A DNA stretch of 25,927 nt, taken from the IMG/VR virus record IMGVR_UViG_3300046778_000073, positions 1 to 25,927 of that record; one strand, given 5' to 3'. The position numbers and the translations under genes were made by a program. The notes beneath the pieces were generated by a model. The model was not told where the DNA came from and did not search any database. It was given only the letters and a program-made list of their open reading frames with translations. Origin of the DNA: a virus. Its lineage: Duplodnaviria; Caudoviricetes. Positions 1 through 25,927 of this stretch are shown here, one piece after another (positions within the stretch are counted from its first letter, which is position 1; each line of letters opens with the position of its first letter).

Positions 1-114
1 TGGGAGATTTTAAGGGAACAATATTCATTGGAATATAAACAGATAGAGGATCTAATAAGGTTCTGGATGGAAGAGACTTTCAAATTGGGGTCATTAATAC
101 CATATTGGTTTTAA
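1..114 (+). CDS. 3' end of a small hypothetical phage protein, truncated by the window start
   Basis: Frame 1 is open from base 1 to TAA at 112-114: WEILREQYSLEYKQIEDLIRFWMEETFKLGSLIPYWF*. Not in the ORF track. Confidence 0.6.
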   Translation, partial: WEILREQYSLEYKQIEDLIRFWMEETFKLGSLIPYWF

Positions 115-167
115 AATACTCTTTTACTTGTGATGGAAGAGGTTTACAAATTGGGGTCATTAACCCC
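66..167 (+). repeat. Two 36-nt direct repeats separated by a 30-nt unique spacer (CRISPR-like mini-array or duplicated C-terminal cassette)
   Basis: 66-101 GATGGAAGAGACTTTCAAATTGGGGTCATTAATACC and 132-167 GATGGAAGAGGTTTACAAATTGGGGTCATTAACCCC match at 31/36. Spacer 102-131 is ATATTGGTTTTAAAATACTCTTTTACTTGT. Confidence 0.85.
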
Positions 168-197
168 TTATTAAAATATAATATAGGGTTTTTTTTT
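162..197 (+). terminator. Putative intrinsic terminator
   Basis: Imperfect stem AACCC...TATTA/TAATA...GGGTT followed by a T9 run. It overlaps the end of repeat copy 2. Confidence 0.55.
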
Positions 198-206
198 ATT
201 CCAAAC

Positions 207-214
207 TATTTATA
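207..214 (+). promoter_or_regulatory. TATTTATA motif, putative phage late promoter
   Basis: Ends 4 nt before ATG 219. The same motif and 4-nt spacing occur upstream of the genes starting at 5976 and 9683. Confidence 0.55.
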
Positions 215-218
215 AATA

Positions 219-539
219 ATGAAAATTATTATAACCGAAGAACAAAAAAAGAAATTATTCATACCTAGGAAATTATCTGGTAATGATTCTAGATATACGG
301 AATGGAATAATAAACAACCGATGGTTGATGGTGTTCAGATAAATCAATATGATTCTGATGGTAATAAACAAGGATTTTGGGATCAACCATATAATTTTAC
401 CATCAACGAAAAAAAATTAACTTCTAAAGGTAATTATACTAATGGTAAAAAGGATGGTATTTGGATTATTTCATATCCAAACGGAAATATATATTTAACT
501 TCAAAATTTAAAGACGGTAAAAGACAATATGGTATATAA
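219..539 (+). CDS. MORN-variant repeat protein (YwqK-like) with an MKIIITEEQ N-terminal leader
   Basis: Repeating beta-hairpin units INQYDSDGNKQGFW, KGNYTNGKKDGIWIISYPNG and FKDGK are typical of MORN-variant repeats. Confidence 0.7.
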   Translation: MKIIITEEQKKKLFIPRKLSGNDSRYTEWNNKQPMVDGVQINQYDSDGNKQGFWDQPYNFTINEKKLTSKGNYTNGKKDGIWIISYPNGNIYLTSKFKDGKRQYGI

Positions 540-540
540 A

Positions 541-566
541 AAAAGGTGGATTTTACCCTACCTTTT
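541..566. terminator. Bidirectional terminator between convergent genes
   Basis: AAAAGGTGG-N8-CTACCTTTT stem flanked by A/T tracts, between ORF 219-539(+) and ORF 553-972(-). Confidence 0.5.
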
Positions 567-972
567 CTGTTTCTGATGATATGGAAACCTCTTCAGTTTC
601 AATTATCTTTATTTCGGGTATTACATCATCACCCCTAATATTAAAATCAAGTTTCGATAATTCATCTAACGATGATGAATTAAACAAATCGTCTAATTGT
701 TTTCTTTTCTCAGCCAATAATTTAATTTTCTGCTCTCTTTCAATATTTACCCTTATAATTTGGTTTATAAACCCCAACATATCCATAAAAGATATATCCT
801 TATCTTTTGTTATTAAATATGTCAAATTATCTTTTTTCTTAACAATAATACCTTCTTGTTGTATTTCCCATTCAGGTTTAAAATAACACTTTAGAAGTTT
901 TATATTACCATCAAATTCAAAAGAAAAAACATAACCCTTATATTCTTCAAATATTCCATCAATATTATTCAT
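553..972 (-). CDS. Hypothetical protein with a C-terminal coiled coil
   Basis: ORF track gives 553-990. ATG 972 overlaps the upstream stop and is the likelier start. EREQKIKLLAEKRKQLDDLF is helical and charged. Confidence 0.7.
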   Translation of the reverse strand: MNNIDGIFEEYKGYVFSFEFDGNIKLLKCYFKPEWEIQQEGIIVKKKDNLTYLITKDKDISFMDMLGFINQIIRVNIEREQKIKLLAEKRKQLDDLFNSSSLDELSKLDFNIRGDDVIPEIKIIETEEVSISSETEKVG

Positions 973-1363
973 CTTTTTTTTCCTCTCCATTAATTACATC
1001 ATATATCGGATGTAACGTTTCTTTATCAACCTCAATTAATATCTTATAGTTCAATAATTCATCTGAATTATAATCCCCACATTGTTCAAACTGAATCGTT
1101 TTTGGTTTAAAAATAAATCCACCTACAACACTTCCGATTGGATCTAAAAATTCAATATTAATTTCTTCAATATTAAACAAATCTTTCGGATTAATCTGAC
1201 GATGAACAGTTTCATATATTTCAGTCGAAAACATTAGTTTATTGCCATCATTGAAAATCTTATATTTTCTAAAAAGATATTCTTCAATAAAACATCCTTT
1301 AAATTTAATTACCCACCTATTTGTTTTAAGTGGTTCAATATATTCCCATTTATTTATCTTCAT
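965..1363 (-). CDS. Tail-tube (T4 gp19-like) paralog
   Basis: Motifs EPLKTNRWVIKF and INIEFLDPIGSVV...DYNSDEL resemble gp19-like tube proteins. ATG 1363 lies 4 nt after the upstream stop. Confidence 0.5.
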   Translation of the reverse strand: MKINKWEYIEPLKTNRWVIKFKGCFIEEYLFRKYKIFNDGNKLMFSTEIYETVHRQINPKDLFNIEEINIEFLDPIGSVVGGFIFKPKTIQFEQCGDYNSDELLNYKILIEVDKETLHPIYDVINGEEKKDE

Positions 1364-1367
1364 ATTC

Positions 1368-1676
1368 TTACCAATCCGGCCATAATTTATGGTGTATAGC
1401 ATATAATATATGATTCACACCAGATGATAAGCAACCATCAAAAAATAATACTTTAAGTATATTATCTATTCCCCATAAAAAACTTATAGGACTGAATAAA
1501 AATAAACTTAAAAAAACCCCACACCAGAACCCAAAACACATTGGACATCTAATTACCGTACTCCAATAAGGACTAATACCTTCAGCCCAATCTCTAAGCC
1601 ATCCAAAAATCTTACTCTGAGTTACAATCGTTGTAATCCCATAACTAATTAAACTAAATAAAATTAAATCTATCAT
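1368..1676 (-). CDS. Small membrane protein, DUF1360-like
   Basis: Hydrophobic segments plus the motif IFGWLR...CPMCFGFW. ATGA start/stop overlap with the upstream gene at 1673-1676. Confidence 0.6.
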   Translation of the reverse strand: MIDLILFSLISYGITTIVTQSKIFGWLRDWAEGISPYWSTVIRCPMCFGFWCGVFLSLFLFSPISFLWGIDNILKVLFFDGCLSSGVNHILYAIHHKLWPDW

Positions 1677-1855
1677 ATTGTAAACCCACAAATTAAAAGT
1701 GTTATTATTATTGATAAAGATACACCTAAAATAATTAACTCTGTTTTAGATATCGGTCTAACTTTATCAGCAGTTATTCCTTTATAAAATAAGAATCCGC
1801 TTCTTAAACAATTTAATAAACTTATTATAAAAAGAAATACTAAAATATGCATCAT
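1673..1855 (-). CDS. Small two-TM membrane protein
   Basis: 60 aa with two hydrophobic stretches; overlaps both neighbours by 4 nt. Confidence 0.65.
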   Translation of the reverse strand: MMHILVFLFIISLLNCLRSGFLFYKGITADKVRPISKTELIILGVSLSIIITLLICGFTI

Positions 1856-2046
1856 TTTACTCCACGACCTTTCATTGTTTTTTTTATTTTATTTACATTC
1901 TTCCACATTATCTTTGTTTCAGACGCTAATTCTTTTAATTTTTTTCTTAACTTAAAAGAATAAACTTTCTTACCTTTAATATAATATTGTTCAGATAATA
2001 TTTCAACATCTTTTAGTATATTTTTTAATATTTGATATTCTTCCAT
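1852..2046 (-). CDS. Small basic protein resembling the histone-H1-like Hc1 family
   Basis: 64 aa, Lys-rich. The pattern LKNIL...YYIKGKKVYSFKLRKKLKEL resembles the KF-x-x-KGNKAAGxRxRK pattern of Bacteroidota Hc1-like proteins. Confidence 0.45.
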   Translation of the reverse strand: MEEYQILKNILKDVEILSEQYYIKGKKVYSFKLRKKLKELASETKIMWKNVNKIKKTMKGRGVK

Positions 2047-2047
2047 A

Positions 2048-2485
2048 TTACTCAGGTATATTTTTATTTATTAACCCCATATTCGTTAAATAATCCTCAA
2101 CAACAACCCAATTAATAAATGGTCTACTATATGATACTTCTTCCCCATCATCATTTTTTGTTTTCATTATAGTTAAAGGAGCTCCAAGAGAACAATCATC
2201 AATAAATAAATCAGCATGACATTTATTGGATGTAGTCCATCTGGCTTGTGTTGGGTTATAACCCACAGCATATAATTCAATACCATTCACTTTAAACCAA
2301 TTAATAGCTTCATTTAACTGACGACCACTACGCATTGTGTTTAATATTAATCGGTGTTTATTTTCAACTAACTTTTTTAATACTGGAATAGCCCCAATAT
2401 CTTGACCTAGTTTTGGATACTCATGAGTCAAAACAGTTCCATCAAAATCAAGTCCTATAACGATACTTTCTTTATTATTTCCCAC
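2048..2485 (-). CDS. HAD-superfamily hydrolase (BT0820-like)
   Basis: Motif I LDFDGT, motif II LILNTMR, motif IV ADLFIDD. A GTG at 2485 avoids the 59-nt overlap that the track start (2551) would need. Confidence 0.85.
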   Translation of the reverse strand: MGNNKESIVIGLDFDGTVLTHEYPKLGQDIGAIPVLKKLVENKHRLILNTMRSGRQLNEAINWFKVNGIELYAVGYNPTQARWTTSNKCHADLFIDDCSLGAPLTIMKTKNDDGEEVSYSRPFINWVVVEDYLTNMGLINKNIPE

Positions 2486-2492
2486 GATATTT

Positions 2493-3149
2493 TTAATTAT
2501 TTTTTGATTTTTGATTAAATACTGAGATCCCAAGAGTGATTGAATCGGCAATATCGTAGTTACTTTTCTTCAATCTACCTTTAGTATCTTTTAACCATTC
2601 CAATTTAGGGTATAACTTATTTACTTCATCAAAGACTACTTTCTTCTTATCTAATGTAGCAAATCCTACTTTATCCACCTTATAATAATGTTTATGTTCT
2701 TCTTTAATTTCATCAATACTTTCAGCCTTTTTCTTATAAGCCCCAAATAACACTAATTTATTTTTAACTGAACCAACTTGCATTAAATTAGGGAATGCTT
2801 TCGCTCTCGCATCGTATGATGAAATGTATTTAGGTGCTACACCTAATATATCATAACACATTTTAGAAATAATACCATTAAATTTTAATAGAGTTGCTAC
2901 CGTATATATATTGTTTGAGCTTAATAATGGTTCTTCAATCCAAATATGTTTAATTGGTAATCCTTTATACTCCCCAATAAGGGTTTGAACTAGGTTAGCT
3001 TTCTCATATAATAGAGAATCATTTGTAGCGTTTTTAACCTTTGGTTCGATTTGTTTAAGTTCTAATACTTTTTCATTATTATAATCAAATAGAGCTATAC
3101 CGACACAACTTGTCGACACATCAAGACATAACATAAATACTTTTTCCAT
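2493..3149 (-). CDS. RuvC-like Holliday junction resolvase (RNase H fold)
   Basis: LCLDVSTSCVGIAL (catalytic Asp), IWIEEP (Glu) and YDIADSITLG (D-x-x-D). Confidence 0.8.
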   Translation of the reverse strand: MEKVFMLCLDVSTSCVGIALFDYNNEKVLELKQIEPKVKNATNDSLLYEKANLVQTLIGEYKGLPIKHIWIEEPLLSSNNIYTVATLLKFNGIISKMCYDILGVAPKYISSYDARAKAFPNLMQVGSVKNKLVLFGAYKKKAESIDEIKEEHKHYYKVDKVGFATLDKKKVVFDEVNKLYPKLEWLKDTKGRLKKSNYDIADSITLGISVFNQKSKNN

Positions 3150-3155
3150 ATACGG

Positions 3156-3183
3156 AATATATAAAAAAATAACATATTGTAAA
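3156..3183 (-). promoter_or_regulatory. Putative host-RNAP-type promoter for the ruvC-like operon
   Basis: TTTACA-N16-TATATT ending 6 nt before ATG 3149. Confidence 0.35.
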
Positions 3184-3185
3184 GA

Positions 3186-3362
3186 TTATATGATTTTAGA
3201 AAAATTAATCCTATCTATGTTACGCGATAAATAACGATCATATGATACTAATACAATTATACCATCAATTTTAATTTTACCAACCATACTTTCAATATCA
3301 ATATCCAAACCAATAATTTTAGATTGTTCTTCCCTTAATATTCGTTTGATTAAATTTTTCAT
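3186..3362 (-). CDS. Small hypothetical protein (58 aa) with an MKNLIKRILREE leader
   Basis: Read manually: MKNLIKRILREEQSKIIGLDIDIESMVGKIKIDGIIVLVSYDRYLSRNIDRINFSKII*. Starts 1 nt after the stop of the 870-aa gene and is absent from the ORF track. Confidence 0.65.
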   Translation of the reverse strand: MKNLIKRILREEQSKIIGLDIDIESMVGKIKIDGIIVLVSYDRYLSRNIDRINFSKII

Positions 3363-21835: not shown

Positions 21836-21897
21836 ATAATAGGGAAATTATTTAAAGAAAACAAATTTGGTAGTTACAAATTAACATATTATATTTG
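21836..21897. promoter_or_regulatory. Back-to-back divergent host-type promoters; the plus-strand one matches the Bacteroidota -33/-7 consensus
   Basis: Plus: TTTG (21866-21869)-N20-TATATTTG (21890-21897). Minus: TTGTTT-N17-TATTAT (21864 to 21836). Confidence 0.6.
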
Positions 21898-21900
21898 TAT

Positions 21901-22311
21901 ATGATTAATGAATTAAAAGACAACGATATTAAAATTTTCATTTATGCGGGTAACGCCACTTTCACAATTACCAACACCAAAACAGGTAATCGTTTTACAT
22001 ATAAAGTCCGCAAATCAAAGGATAATGATATTTATTTCGTATCGGTTTTAACGGGTTCCGATAATACAAATGATTATTCATATATCGGATTCATTAAAAA
22101 CGAATTATTTAAAACAAGTAAGAAATCAAAAGTCACTTCGGATTCACCATCCTTTAAAGTCTTTAATTGGTTTATGATTAATATCAATAAAATACCATCA
22201 ATTGTTCAAGTTTTACATGAAGGAAGTTGTGGTAGATGTGGTAGAAAACTTACAACACCTGAATCAATTGAGAGGGGTATTGGTCCAGAATGTGTTAGAA
22301 TAATGAGATAA
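21901..22311 (+). CDS. DUF6011-like zinc-binding protein
   Basis: C-terminal HEGSCGRCGRKLTTPESIERGIGPEC. ATG 21901 is preferred over the track's TTG 21895. Confidence 0.75.
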   Translation: MINELKDNDIKIFIYAGNATFTITNTKTGNRFTYKVRKSKDNDIYFVSVLTGSDNTNDYSYIGFIKNELFKTSKKSKVTSDSPSFKVFNWFMININKIPSIVQVLHEGSCGRCGRKLTTPESIERGIGPECVRIMR

Positions 22312-23362: not shown

Positions 23363-24199
23363 TTATTTTCTTTTTATTCTAATTATTTGACCTCTACCTT
23401 TACTATACTGTGGATTTTGTAGTATAAAATCATTAAAAGATAATACTTTCATCTGATTAGGTGTATATTTATATAATTTAACCCCGTCATTATACCATTT
23501 AGCACCCTTATTTTTAATACCACCCCTTTTACCCCTTTCACTTTGCTTTTTTCTCATTTCCTCATCACTTATTCCATTCTTATCGGCATAGTGTTTCGAG
23601 AAAAGACCATGATCCCCACCTTTTTTACATATTTCATACCTTAATAATGGATCATAATACGCACTACTTTGTTTATTTCTCAATGTTTCATGCATTTTTC
23701 GCCTAACTTCTTCACTATACATACCAGTTCCGTTCAATTTATTAACTATTTTAGCCGCCTTACCACCTTTACTACAAACATCCAATTTTTCATGTTCAGT
23801 TAATTTATAAAACCCTAATTTATTGGTGTAAGATAACATTCCATGAAATCTCCTCACCTTAAACATTTTCTCTTTTTCTAATTCATAATCATTAACATTC
23901 TCACTTACGAAATTATAATGTAAATTCAAATAATCTTTCCTATGTACAGCAATATTTAATAATTTTCTTTCATATCGTAAGGTTTCAAACTCACTATCAA
24001 AAATCTTCAATATTTTATATTCAAAATCATCTTTACCATACACATCAATAAATTTTTTTACTAAACTAGATGATGTAAAATAAGTAACCCAAAAATTTTT
24101 AGGGTCAGACTTTTTAGAGTATTTCGCTCCGATATATTTCAATCCTGTTGTTATGTTTTTAATAAAATAAACATAAGGTATTCTGTCATCTTTTTTCAT
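23363..24199 (-). CDS. Free-standing GIY-YIG homing endonuclease (Seg-like) with NUMOD3-like DNA-binding repeats
   Basis: PYVYFIKNITTGLKYIG, YFTSS, conserved E (LRYERKLL) and YLN. C-terminal SEEVRRKMHE and SDEEMRKKQSE repeats plus KWYNDG. Confidence 0.85.
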   Translation of the reverse strand: MKKDDRIPYVYFIKNITTGLKYIGAKYSKKSDPKNFWVTYFTSSSLVKKFIDVYGKDDFEYKILKIFDSEFETLRYERKLLNIAVHRKDYLNLHYNFVSENVNDYELEKEKMFKVRRFHGMLSYTNKLGFYKLTEHEKLDVCSKGGKAAKIVNKLNGTGMYSEEVRRKMHETLRNKQSSAYYDPLLRYEICKKGGDHGLFSKHYADKNGISDEEMRKKQSERGKRGGIKNKGAKWYNDGVKLYKYTPNQMKVLSFNDFILQNPQYSKGRGQIIRIKRK

Positions 24200-24250: not shown

Positions 24251-25927
24251 TTAATATGAAATAATTTCATCACCATCTAATAATTCATCAACTTTCTTCC
24301 ACCCATTAATAGTTTTTAACTTATGATTACCGGTGAATTTATATATACTACCATCCTCAAATTCAATATCATATACTGGGGTATTACCATTCATATATAA
24401 TGCAGTTATATCTTGTAACTCATTATTTTCGTCAAAAACTTTTAATAAGTTTTTAGGTTTGGCAAAAGTATCATAAATTAAATTGTCAATAATAATCTCT
24501 TCACCCATACAATAATTAAAAACCTCATTTAATGTCATATCACCTAATTCAGTTTTTATTTTAGTGTCAAATGTCGTGCATGAATTTCCTGATGGTTTGC
24601 AGGTTGTGGCCCTAGACGCTGGGTTAATTTCTATAATACTGGCAAGTTCTCTATTTACCTCTTTTATAATTTCAGCACCTTTTCTTTGTATATCAGGATT
24701 CATCATAATATGGGGATTTGACATCCAACCTGTGAATGAACAACCTAATAACGCTTCACGCTCAAATAATTCTCTAGTTGTCTTATTAACGTATTTAAAA
24801 TTAGTATATCCGGCTTGTAACGTACCTAGTATTGATAATGAACGACAAGCCTCATAAAATTTTTCTTCCGTATTACAAGCACTACCATTACCTTCTGTTA
24901 AATTACATCCCTGCCAACCTGTTCTACCATCTTCCAACATAGGGAAAAATCGAATCTCAACACATGGGTTACTAACCTCATCATAATCACTTACAAAAAG
25001 AAATCCTGGTTCACCATACTCCTTAATTTTAGAAAATACATTATTAAAATCACTATCACTTATTTCATCTCTCTTCAAAACAACAGAATTATTAGACCTA
25101 GCTCTTTGTGGATTATCGTAATACCAATTACCAATTTTAGCGTTCATCATTTCATCGTCATCATAACTAAAAAAGCAAATTGTCGCACTCCTTCGTACCC
25201 CTCCTGACAATACGGCATCTGCCATATGCATAACAAAATCATACGCAGTTATACTTTTAATTCTAAACCCACCATTATTTATTAACTTCTCTAATAGTTC
25301 CTCACATTTTAATAATGATTTTCTTAAACCCTCAGGTCCTGGAGCTTTAAAACCACCGGAAATCATAGCACCCTCAGGTCTTATTAAACTTAAATCAAAT
25401 CTTATTTCATATCCTTCATACTCAGGAAATGACGATTCACCCTCATCACTCACATATGATGATATTAAAATACCAAAAGCATCTGACCACCCTTCAATAC
25501 TATCAGGAACAATAAATGTCTTAACACCTTTTATTCTTTTACCGATATTAGGTAATTTATCAATGTGTCGTTTTTGAACAGAAAATCCTAACCCACAACC
25601 ATTTAATAAAAAAAACATTACTTCCTGAAATGCACTTATTTTATCTAAATAACCACCAACACAATTGTACATCTTAGTCTCATGCTTTAAAATAGGATCA
25701 CCACCAAACTGTAACGCCCTTTGTGATCCTAATACCAATTTATTTTTATAAGCGCTAGTTGCCTCATTAAATAATTCCATAAATCTCGGATTACTTAAAT
25801 ATTTAGAATATTTTGTTTTATGCATATCCATCACCCTATCAACCGATTCATCCCAAGTCTCAGTCCTATTCTCATCGTCAATCCATCTCGAATAATCTAA
25901 ATAATATTTTAAATCACTCGCCAATTG
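24251..25927 (-). CDS. nrdJ: Class II (adenosylcobalamin-dependent, RTPR-type) ribonucleotide reductase, N-terminal fragment plus IntN; 5' end probably beyond the window
   Basis: RTETWDESVDRV, MYNC, GGVRRSA, SNPCVEI (thiyl-radical Cys), GCNLTE and TTCKPSGN. The frame is open to the window edge, so the track's TTG start is probably not the true start. Confidence 0.92.
   Translation of the reverse strand, partial: QLASDLKYYLDYSRWIDDENRTETWDESVDRVMDMHKTKYSKYLSNPRFMELFNEATSAYKNKLVLGSQRALQFGGDPILKHETKMYNCVGGYLDKISAFQEVMFFLLNGCGLGFSVQKRHIDKLPNIGKRIKGVKTFIVPDSIEGWSDAFGILISSYVSDEGESSFPEYEGYEIRFDLSLIRPEGAMISGGFKAPGPEGLRKSLLKCEELLEKLINNGGFRIKSITAYDFVMHMADAVLSGGVRRSATICFFSYDDDEMMNAKIGNWYYDNPQRARSNNSVVLKRDEISDSDFNNVFSKIKEYGEPGFLFVSDYDEVSNPCVEIRFFPMLEDGRTGWQGCNLTEGNGSACNTEEKFYEACRSLSILGTLQAGYTNFKYVNKTTRELFEREALLGCSFTGWMSNPHIMMNPDIQRKGAEIIKEVNRELASIIEINPASRATTCKPSGNSCTTFDTKIKTELGDMTLNEVFNYCMGEEIIIDNLIYDTFAKPKNLLKVFDENNELQDITALYMNGNTPVYDIEFEDGSIYKFTGNHKLKTINGWKKVDELLDGDEIISY
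24254..24580 (-). mobile_element. Split intein N-fragment (IntN, 109 aa)
   Basis: Starts at Cys1 (KPSGNS|CTTFDTKIKT), has block B TxxH (KFTGNHKL), and ends GWKKVDELLDGDEIISY-stop with no endonuclease domain. Confidence 0.92.

Follow-up and report, generated by a model that had tools for sequence, protein, structure and literature searches.

Background

Small CRISPR arrays have been described in viral genomes. In the available portions of the sources, viral mini-arrays hold one or two spacers, with repeats identical to those of the host and spacers targeting related viruses (PMC11656645), and the arrays of huge phages are compact, mostly lack Cas1, Cas2 and Cas4 and may use Cas proteins of the host (PMC7162821). 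New arrays can also be spawned by off-target integration (10.1101/148544 and PMC7054753, both citing Nivala et al. 2018); in the accessible text of these two sources, such 'neo-CRISPR' events are reported for the chromosome of E. coli under overproduction or artificial up-regulation of the acquisition machinery (10.1101/148544, PMC7054753). Here we analyse a locus at the start of the IMG/VR virus record IMGVR_UViG_3300046778_000073 (Caudoviricetes), where the 36 nucleotides (nt) encoding the last conserved motif of a protein are repeated after a 30-nt spacer. The record was analysed at its full length of 25,927 bases, hereafter the window, and the locus occupies its positions 1–197.

With viral mini-arrays and the cas-less arrays of huge phages, as far as they are set out in the available text of the sources, the locus shares a viral genome, one to few spacers, repeats of CRISPR size, the lack of nearby adaptation genes, compactness and variation between related viruses (PMC11656645, PMC7162821, PMC6858448). 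It differs from both in that the first repeat is, in this phage family, the coding end of a conserved domain, in that the repeat varies between paralogs, many of which each have their own small array, and in that neither a similar host CRISPR repeat in the collections searched nor a spacer target was found. With neo-CRISPR, in the partial descriptions at hand, it shares a spacer-sized insert together with a duplicated, repeat-sized stretch of local sequence. In contrast to neo-CRISPR, the genomes here are those of phages, the event recurs at one coding motif over a deep family, growth reaches four repeats and the integrase is only postulated. The reading that we favour, at a probability of roughly 0.45, is that the units were made by an insertion of the CRISPR-adaptation type, which would duplicate a 36-nt target and add ~30 nt of unrelated DNA, and that positions 1–197 of the window would hold an old, diverged unit.

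Second copies and arrays in the gene family

The 37-amino acid (aa) fragment encoded at the start of the window is too short for most searches, and therefore its in-frame read-through translation, with X at the stops, was used as query. This retrieved a 156-aa protein (P0002) with 72% identity over its C-terminus. Searches seeded with P0002 and with a C-terminal profile gathered 23 and 56 proteins, and the hidden Markov model of the family matched frame 1 of the window. Family members consist of an N-terminal leader (MKIIITEEQKKKLFIPRK), a variable body and a C-terminal domain that invariably ends W/x-[MLV]E..[YF]K[LI]GSLTP, the motif of repeat 1 being WMEExYKLGSLTP. A member with two copies of this motif, P0025, was modelled with AlphaFold2 using 28 family sequences (mean predicted local distance difference test score, pLDDT, 78.5). 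Block-mean pLDDT was 81–95 over residues 21–150 and fell from 53 to 34 beyond. The end of repeat 1 lies at about residue 150, where the confident fold stops. Repeat 1 is therefore true coding sequence for the end of the folded domain; it codes for the last conserved motif of the predicted fold. The P0025 model had no match to a solved structure at E≤0.001. Among predicted viral structures it matched only uncharacterised proteins of uncultured caudoviruses, and the ESM Atlas scores for the fold reached at most 0.77.

DNA of family members covers the window, L055 and L037; elsewhere the nucleotide identity of repeats, the lengths of frame-shifted spacers and the neighbouring genes were deduced from proteins. 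The distance to a second copy of the motif was scanned in 59 unique repeat/tail combinations, 30 of them distinct proteins with at least 13 codons past repeat 1. A second-copy start was called perfect when its first 3–5 residues were encodable in some frame, at offsets of 9–54 nt. Perfect starts were found in 21 of the 30 proteins, at 30 nt (15 proteins), 29 nt (4), 32 nt (1) and 48 nt (1); the other 42 offsets between 9 and 54 nt gave none, and in the remaining nine proteins the second-copy start was imperfect or lacking. Second copies occurred in all three frames relative to the open reading frame (ORF): in frame in P0003, P0025 and others, in frame +1 in P0047, and in frame +2 as tails like WKWNTNWDH* (asterisk, stop), which is the repeat read one base off. 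Copy 2 of the window read in frame +2 would give WKRFTNWGH*. Copies in each of these frames were confirmed by a codon-compatibility dynamic programme with shuffled controls.

In a maximum-likelihood tree of the gene bodies, every major clade had a second copy, including the LEEH clade, whose separation from the others spans inner branches with lengths of 1.8 and 1.15 changes per column. The DNA of the very distant member L037 holds a 36-nt copy, followed after a 30-nt spacer by the start (~10 nt) of a second copy with a 66-nt period; eroded second copies were also seen in P0027, P0030/36 and P0066. In most clades the second copy begins with ATG, the LEEH clade repeat beginning with L and not with M. 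Only a short, unconserved stretch lies 3' of copy 2 (Y*, YPQFGFAFP*, ILFHQ..., EKRMEQ*).

Sixteen proteins had at least two in-frame copies, with up to four in P0048/P0074 and P0073 and three each in P0053 and P0054. The array of P0048 can be written R-VAFTSISDFK-R-QLFFTTREFS-R-INVDIGEVIK-R', where R is the repeat. Out of 19 unique in-frame spacers, 18 were exactly 10 codons long and one was 16 codons long. At the protein level the repeats were identical within a gene even where genes differ (MEME, MEIT, MEGV, LEEH, VEET, VEEA), and degeneracy of the last repeat (..LTT vs ..LIP) was seen in P0048, P0074 and P0075, which share a cluster. Spacers within an array were mutually unrelated. The layout is therefore CRISPR-like in form, judged from the sequences: repeats of CRISPR size, unique spacers under a length rule, gain and loss of units and a degenerate terminal repeat.

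The gain and loss of units were seen by comparing members of the same 90%-identity clusters. In the P0057 cluster (four members) and P0058, the sole member of its own cluster, the body was identical over 95/95 positions in 10/10 pairs, and both repeats and the tail EKRMEQ were identical too; the five spacers of these proteins were unrelated in any reading frame, none beating shuffles. P0053 (R-a-R-b-R) and P0073 (R-a'-R-b-R-c-R) have spacer b and the tail in common, P0075 is P0048 without the middle unit, P0077 has a new spacer on the gene-proximal side of P0048's first spacer, and P0097 and P0085 are P0062 and P0088, respectively, plus one unit. Among near-identical genes differing in spacers or unit number the distal tail was unchanged. 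The initial annotation of the window, made from the letters alone, had proposed as a test that homologs be followed by arrays with repeats 30 nt apart and variable spacers, and this was borne out: two to four copies follow one another at 29–30 nt, with unrelated spacers and units gained or lost. Nor is the repeat confined to the window or the spacer invariant, as would be expected had the annotation been wrong.

Through 10 codons, 31 of 52 unique first spacers or tails were open, against a fraction of 0.497 for random-frame 10-mers of the window, and spacer composition was close to the same random-frame null. The spacers thus look like non-coding DNA, with stops at about the random rate. This rate weakens the idea, also raised at first, of a cassette that swaps protein C-termini.

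The repeat pair of the window

A direct-repeat search of window positions 1–1500 gave one family, 66–106 versus 132–172 (41 nt, 85% identity, 66 nt from start to start). In codon register the repeats lie at 67–102 and 133–168 on the + strand and differ at 6 of 36 positions; the two 36-nt repeats 30 nt apart described initially are thus present, but the identity of 31/36 given for them fits a register shifted by one base, the codon register giving 30/36. The gene, truncated by the contig start, is represented by its 3' end (1–114, + strand; 37 codons and a stop), where the C-terminal domain of the multi-copy family described above is encoded. Starting at base 1, frame 1 stays open up to the TAA at 112–114 and reads ...RFWMEETFKLGSLIPYWF / ...LIRFWMEETFKLGSLIPYWF. 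As had been stated, copy 1 therefore lies inside the coding sequence, where it encodes MEETFKLGSLIP, the final conserved motif of the domain, and the stop falls in the spacer (103–132, + strand; 30 nt, 23% G+C), which holds the last three codons of the ORF and the TAA.

Repeat 2 reads MEEVYKLGSLTP in the frame of the ORF, and the full translation of copy 2 in that frame is MEEVYKLGSLTPY*, in agreement with the initial reading. At two positions repeat 2 (Y, T) is nearer the family consensus than repeat 1 (F, I), and all changes in copy 2 retain the conserved residues of the family. The similarity noted beyond 36 nt was also found: allowing for a 6-nt in-frame gap (TGGTTT), TAT...TAAAATA trails both copies. 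With variable positions set to N/Y and up to three mismatches allowed, a degenerate pattern of the repeat had two matches in the 25.9-kb record and the reversed-pattern control had none. Taken on its own, the window looks like an old duplication.

A hairpin at 162–190 followed by nine T residues (162–197, + strand) overlaps the last bases of repeat 2 and is terminator-like; it would mark the end of the transcription unit. The terminator-like hairpin claimed over copy 2 thus exists, but its free energy of −8.1 kcal/mol (z = 0.44) is no better than that of shuffles, and it was not among the sites listed by a consensus terminator scan. Neither repeat of the window beat shuffles when folded as RNA; the 3' hairpin of repeat 2, of 5 bp, has no counterpart in repeat 1 or, as read from its sequence, in L055. 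A promoter within repeat 2 (GTTTAC, 142–147) was discarded because a −10 element is missing at 16–18 nt.

The Logan contigs of the best-matching sequencing run were fragmented across window 1–300 and contained no 66-nt joint; such contigs cannot reveal rare variants. No RNA runs containing the window stretch were listed. Summed contig depth in the best-matching run was ~82 over the motif, ~115 over the conserved start of the next gene and ~9 in the flanks. One contig of that run matches the window from base 132 on and is preceded by 60 unrelated letters, of which the 30 shown are GC-richer; this may be another spacer beside a near-identical repeat in the same sample.

Genomic context and relatives

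The window is a complete IMG/VR record, estimated as ~8% of a genome, with 29% G+C. Since the contig start cuts the gene and the record is whole, the 5' part of the gene is missing from the data. The source is a large T4-like myovirus, with Pfam matches to gp25 and baseplate J as well as to a SegE-type GIY-YIG endonuclease; a ribonucleotide reductase carrying an intein signal was matched too.

Downstream of the repeat pair, positions 219–539 (+ strand) encode a paralog of the same superfamily, with the leader MKIIITEEQKKKLFIPRK and a weak MORN-like repeat, without the C-terminal domain and the repeat; the leader is common to this gene and to MORN-repeat paralogs. Long chains of modules joined by a recurring linker were observed in some family members, namely P0060 (849 aa), with EGLNLPKK, and L038 (3001–3885), with KKKLFIPRK inside its ORF. 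The N-terminal leader that members share may therefore be a linker between modules or a site of processing. Immediately 5' of the gene at 219–539 and abutting its ATG lies a conserved intergenic motif, a T-run plus TATTTATAAATA (186–218, + strand), which has 86–93% matches 5' of paralogs (L013 1581–1609, L014 4146–4173, L015 4143–4171, L017 2831–2859) and occurs also in G001 and G003. TATAAATA is the late-promoter box of T4, but in the window it abuts the start codon.

Relatives with ~90% aa identity in a neighbouring gene (window 2493–3149) have synteny limited to window ~505–3200, and their slot for the gene tail, the repeat and the MORN paralog is filled by other genes. In L021–L028 the synteny (80–86% nt identity over ~1.9–2.7 kb) stops at the end of the gene at 219–539, and at the boundary at window ~505–540 the slot holds genes of a different kind, of 325–390 aa. 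The locus is therefore a variable island. The tail peptide was absent from the records of five relatives, was not found in IMG/VR, and was not found in the scanned metagenome contigs except in the distant L036/L037. The degenerate motif pattern had L055 as its sole match in IMG/VR. This contig breaks within the gene and reads ...MEEKYKLGSLTPII*, directly followed by a hairpin with a T-run and then by the next paralog. The 17-mer core of the repeat had four matches in IMG/VR and was discarded as a marker of kinship, the 17-mer alone being shared. Among GenBank phages there was no match to window 1–1500 (blastn) or to the 37-aa tail, P0003, P0053 and P0057 (tblastn).

Three further observations concern the rest of the window. 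A Shine-Dalgarno-like sequence is missing at 21 of 23 predicted starts, which have AT-rich leaders only; this suggests a host with Shine-Dalgarno-independent initiation. The SegE-type GIY-YIG homing endonuclease gene (23363–24199, − strand) adjoins the ribonucleotide reductase gene (24251–25927, − strand), which continues past the end of the contig and shows a weak match to intein splicing. Positions 21895–22311 encode a 138-aa protein with a strong C-terminal DUF6011 match (E = 1.6e-14).

Proposed origin of the units

In an origin by adaptation-type insertion, the final 12 codons of a gene of a large phage would serve as the seed of an array, and a ruler-type integrase would then add new units next to this gene. 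To our knowledge Cas1-Cas2 is the only enzyme with this signature, and for this reason the integrase would presumably be the host's Cas1-Cas2 acting on phage DNA, either off-target, as in neo-CRISPR, or recruited by the phage. We know of no other process that gives together repeats of a gene's own sequence, unrelated inserts of fixed length and growth on the gene side. In the family, repeats copy the motif of each gene with its lineage-specific residues (MEME, MEIT, MEGV, LEEH, VEET) and the inserts measure 29–30 nt; duplication of the local site, as in neo-CRISPR, would explain why each gene's own motif is copied. Since insertion just past the final functional codon would be tolerated, its persistence at this site would be accounted for. 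Units would later be lost by repeat-repeat recombination, giving the single-copy forms L055, P0062 and P0088, and mutational decay would give the eroded forms, such as those of P0027, P0030/36, P0066 and L037.

Since the array lies inside the transcription unit of the gene, with the hairpin after repeat 2, its RNA would carry putative guide-like repeat-spacer units, for which use by Cas proteins is a candidate role only. A broader version, which we advance tentatively and regard as doubtful in its entirety, is that large freshwater phages carry many small CRISPR-like arrays grown from the coding 3' ends of paralogs. An integrase with a 36/30 ruler would repeatedly write ~30-nt spacers into them, the phage genome would be substrate or user of adaptation, and each mRNA would deliver guide-like RNA.

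Direct repeats in the range of ~23–50 nt with unique spacers of similar length are present in the window (36/30/36, with 30/36 identical) and, at the protein level, in the family. Type II, V-A and VI-B systems typically combine repeats of 36 nt and spacers of 30 nt. Membership among CRISPR arrays was not shown by the tests made, and several results weigh against an origin by adaptation-type insertion. A cmscan of window 1–3000 against Rfam 15 (E≤1) gave no matches, the CRISPR-DR families included. No cas or defence family was found among the window proteins (25 proteins with Pfam, 21 with PADLOC), and a Cas1 model matched none of five records, namely the window and four relatives; the relatives amount to ~250 kb, each is 8–30% complete, and all five are fragments of a genome estimated at ~320 kb. 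Repeat 1 is coding, unlike a non-coding array, and paralogs have repeats of differing sequence, which is not how an array served by one Cas protein looks. The window version of the repeat pattern was absent from 185,579 species-representative genomes, and in a sample of 401 genomes from one phylum it never occurred in array-like numbers. Array-type matches to the pattern (Oscillatoria, Saprospiraceae, Lewinellaceae) were rejected as unrelated 65-nt and 17–29-nt tandem repeats. The one in the Oscillatoria genome contig (L059, 1953–2311) is a 65-nt tandem repeat of 5.5 copies with 90% matches and a GC-rich palindrome; it contains a 13-mer core of the phage repeat by chance and is unrelated to the finding.

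In GenBank phages the window spacer had chance-level matches only (E≥0.6), none of them significant, and it had no protospacer in the records of five relatives; it had no significant match in 409 kb of collected DNA, where 37 spacer peptides gave self and chance-level matches only. In the closest pairs some spacers look inherited and drifting rather than replaced: P0025/P0030 reach 19/24 nt at best (equalled by 13 of 2000 shuffles) and P0004/P0007 reach 18/24. The two repeats of the window, which differ at 6/36 positions, are no closer to each other than to the motif of another phage, copy 1 differing from L055 at 6 and copy 2 at 5 positions per 36 nt. The second copy is absent in L055, and a stop at codon 11 makes a canonical second copy impossible in P0033 and P0041. 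Finally, the evidence for arrays consists of predicted proteins of metagenome assemblies, except for the window and L037.

Alternative explanations

The most serious alternative, which we nevertheless hold to be unlikely, is cassette exchange by recombination with no integrase involved, in which the very active recombination of T4-like phages would swap or delete the content between 36-nt repeats carried by many paralogs and strains, leaving otherwise identical genes with different spacers and homogenising the repeats. It accords with a multi-copy family, several members of which lie on one contig, the longest (123,655 nt), and with a summed Logan depth over the motif of about nine times the flanking level in the best-matching run. 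Loss of units between identical repeats in P0075, P0088 and P0062 and the retention of homologous spacers in some close pairs are also what it predicts. It leaves the source of unrelated spacers of fixed length unexplained, however, as well as the spacing kept at 29–30 nt despite randomised sequence, and none of the spacers in the sequences examined occurs in more than one cluster.

A functional virus-borne mini-CRISPR array, whose transcript would be processed into guides by a host effector using 36-nt repeats, against competitors or as a decoy, is improbable. The 36/30 geometry, the turnover of spacers, the degenerate last repeat and the position within a transcription unit that ends after repeat 2 speak for it. 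The available text of the sources adds that viral mini-arrays hold one or two spacers (PMC11656645) and that huge phages carry cas-less arrays (PMC7162821). Yet the host-identical repeats and related-virus targets which are usual in known mini-arrays, as far as the source sets them out (PMC11656645), were not found here in the collections searched. Moreover, the repeats are not the same in all paralogs and lineages, repeat 1 and L055 lack the 3' hairpin of repeat 2, and no CRISPR-DR family of Rfam matched in window 1–3000. The initial suggestion of an array that borrows or decoys host Cas13b or Cas9 has no support so far, the searches described above having found no cas gene, Rfam CRISPR-DR match, host repeat or protospacer.

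A protein or translational device would consist of a tandem C-terminal peptide with variable linkers, a mini-ORF started from the ATG of repeat 2, or bypassing like that of T4 gene 60; we consider it quite improbable. It draws on the sparing of all conserved residues by the changes in copy 2 of the window, on the ATG that starts copy 2 in most clades and on the spacers of P0048, P0053, P0057, their cluster mates and P0058, all of which are open and in frame. The missing Shine-Dalgarno sequence before copy 2 is uninformative, because 21/23 starts of the phage lack one. The device is opposed by second copies in all three frames, spacer stops at the random rate, low model confidence beyond repeat 1, the lack of conservation after copy 2 and the L, in place of M, that starts the LEEH clade repeat. 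In the available text on T4 gene 60 (10.1101/2022.08.31.505936, 10.1101/2024.12.09.627546), the bypass likewise involves a short non-coding insert in a gene of a T4-like phage, with a stop soon after the first matching site. It differs in needing only matching take-off and landing codons and in restoring an essential downstream ORF, whereas here 12 codons are duplicated and nothing is conserved after copy 2; this type of bypass is hard to square with the locus, as no conserved ORF resumes there. A diversity-generating retroelement was rejected: the six differences between the copies are not adenine-specific and no reverse transcriptase is among the window proteins.

An ordinary 66-nt tandem duplication of the gene 3' end by slippage or unequal crossover, now decaying, is very improbable. 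The plain duplication allowed for in the initial annotation does suit the window alone (two copies, 6/36 differences, similarity past the repeat with a 6-nt gap), and the eroded second copies listed above are compatible with it. It does not fit the family, where it is contradicted by the sequences: it predicts spacers as alike as the repeats, but arrays show identical repeats with unrelated spacers, identical genes have different spacers, and the spacing is kept between clades parted by inner branches with lengths of 1.15 and 1.8 changes per column. In-gene tandem or minisatellite repeats, the usual false-positive 'CRISPR', resemble the locus in a period (66 nt) that is a multiple of three, a position within an ORF and copy-number change by whole units. 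There, however, the whole unit repeats, while here the spacers are unrelated, both within arrays and between identical genes, in which they are replaced wholesale.

An assembly artefact, in which loops threaded through the 36-nt repeat of many paralogs would yield false arrays and spacer variants, is hardly credible. In its favour, the gene is broken in both IMG/VR contigs that have it (the window and L055), the Logan contigs over window 1–300 are fragmented, and P0072, P0083 and P0076 end within a repeat at a contig end. Against it, real reads must still show every spacer between two repeats, one array (P0048 = P0074) was obtained from one and four contigs, and the pattern is found again in sequences from JGI, ENA, NCBI and Logan. 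A collapsed longer array would still be a repeat-spacer array, so that collapse would at worst hide longer ones.

Implications

The loci break metagenome assemblies and leave odd repetitive C-termini in protein databases; they would serve as strain-level markers of these phages. If recombination alone drives the turnover, an unusual cassette, hypervariable and under a strict length rule, is still left to explain. If insertion of the adaptation type is confirmed, these loci would show CRISPR-type integration of spacers occurring naturally in viral DNA, at a site that codes for protein, recurring over a deep gene family and with arrays that change between otherwise identical phage genes. Such a case would bear on how new CRISPR arrays originate, on whether phages recruit or suffer the adaptation machinery of their hosts and on whether a coding sequence can double as a CRISPR repeat.

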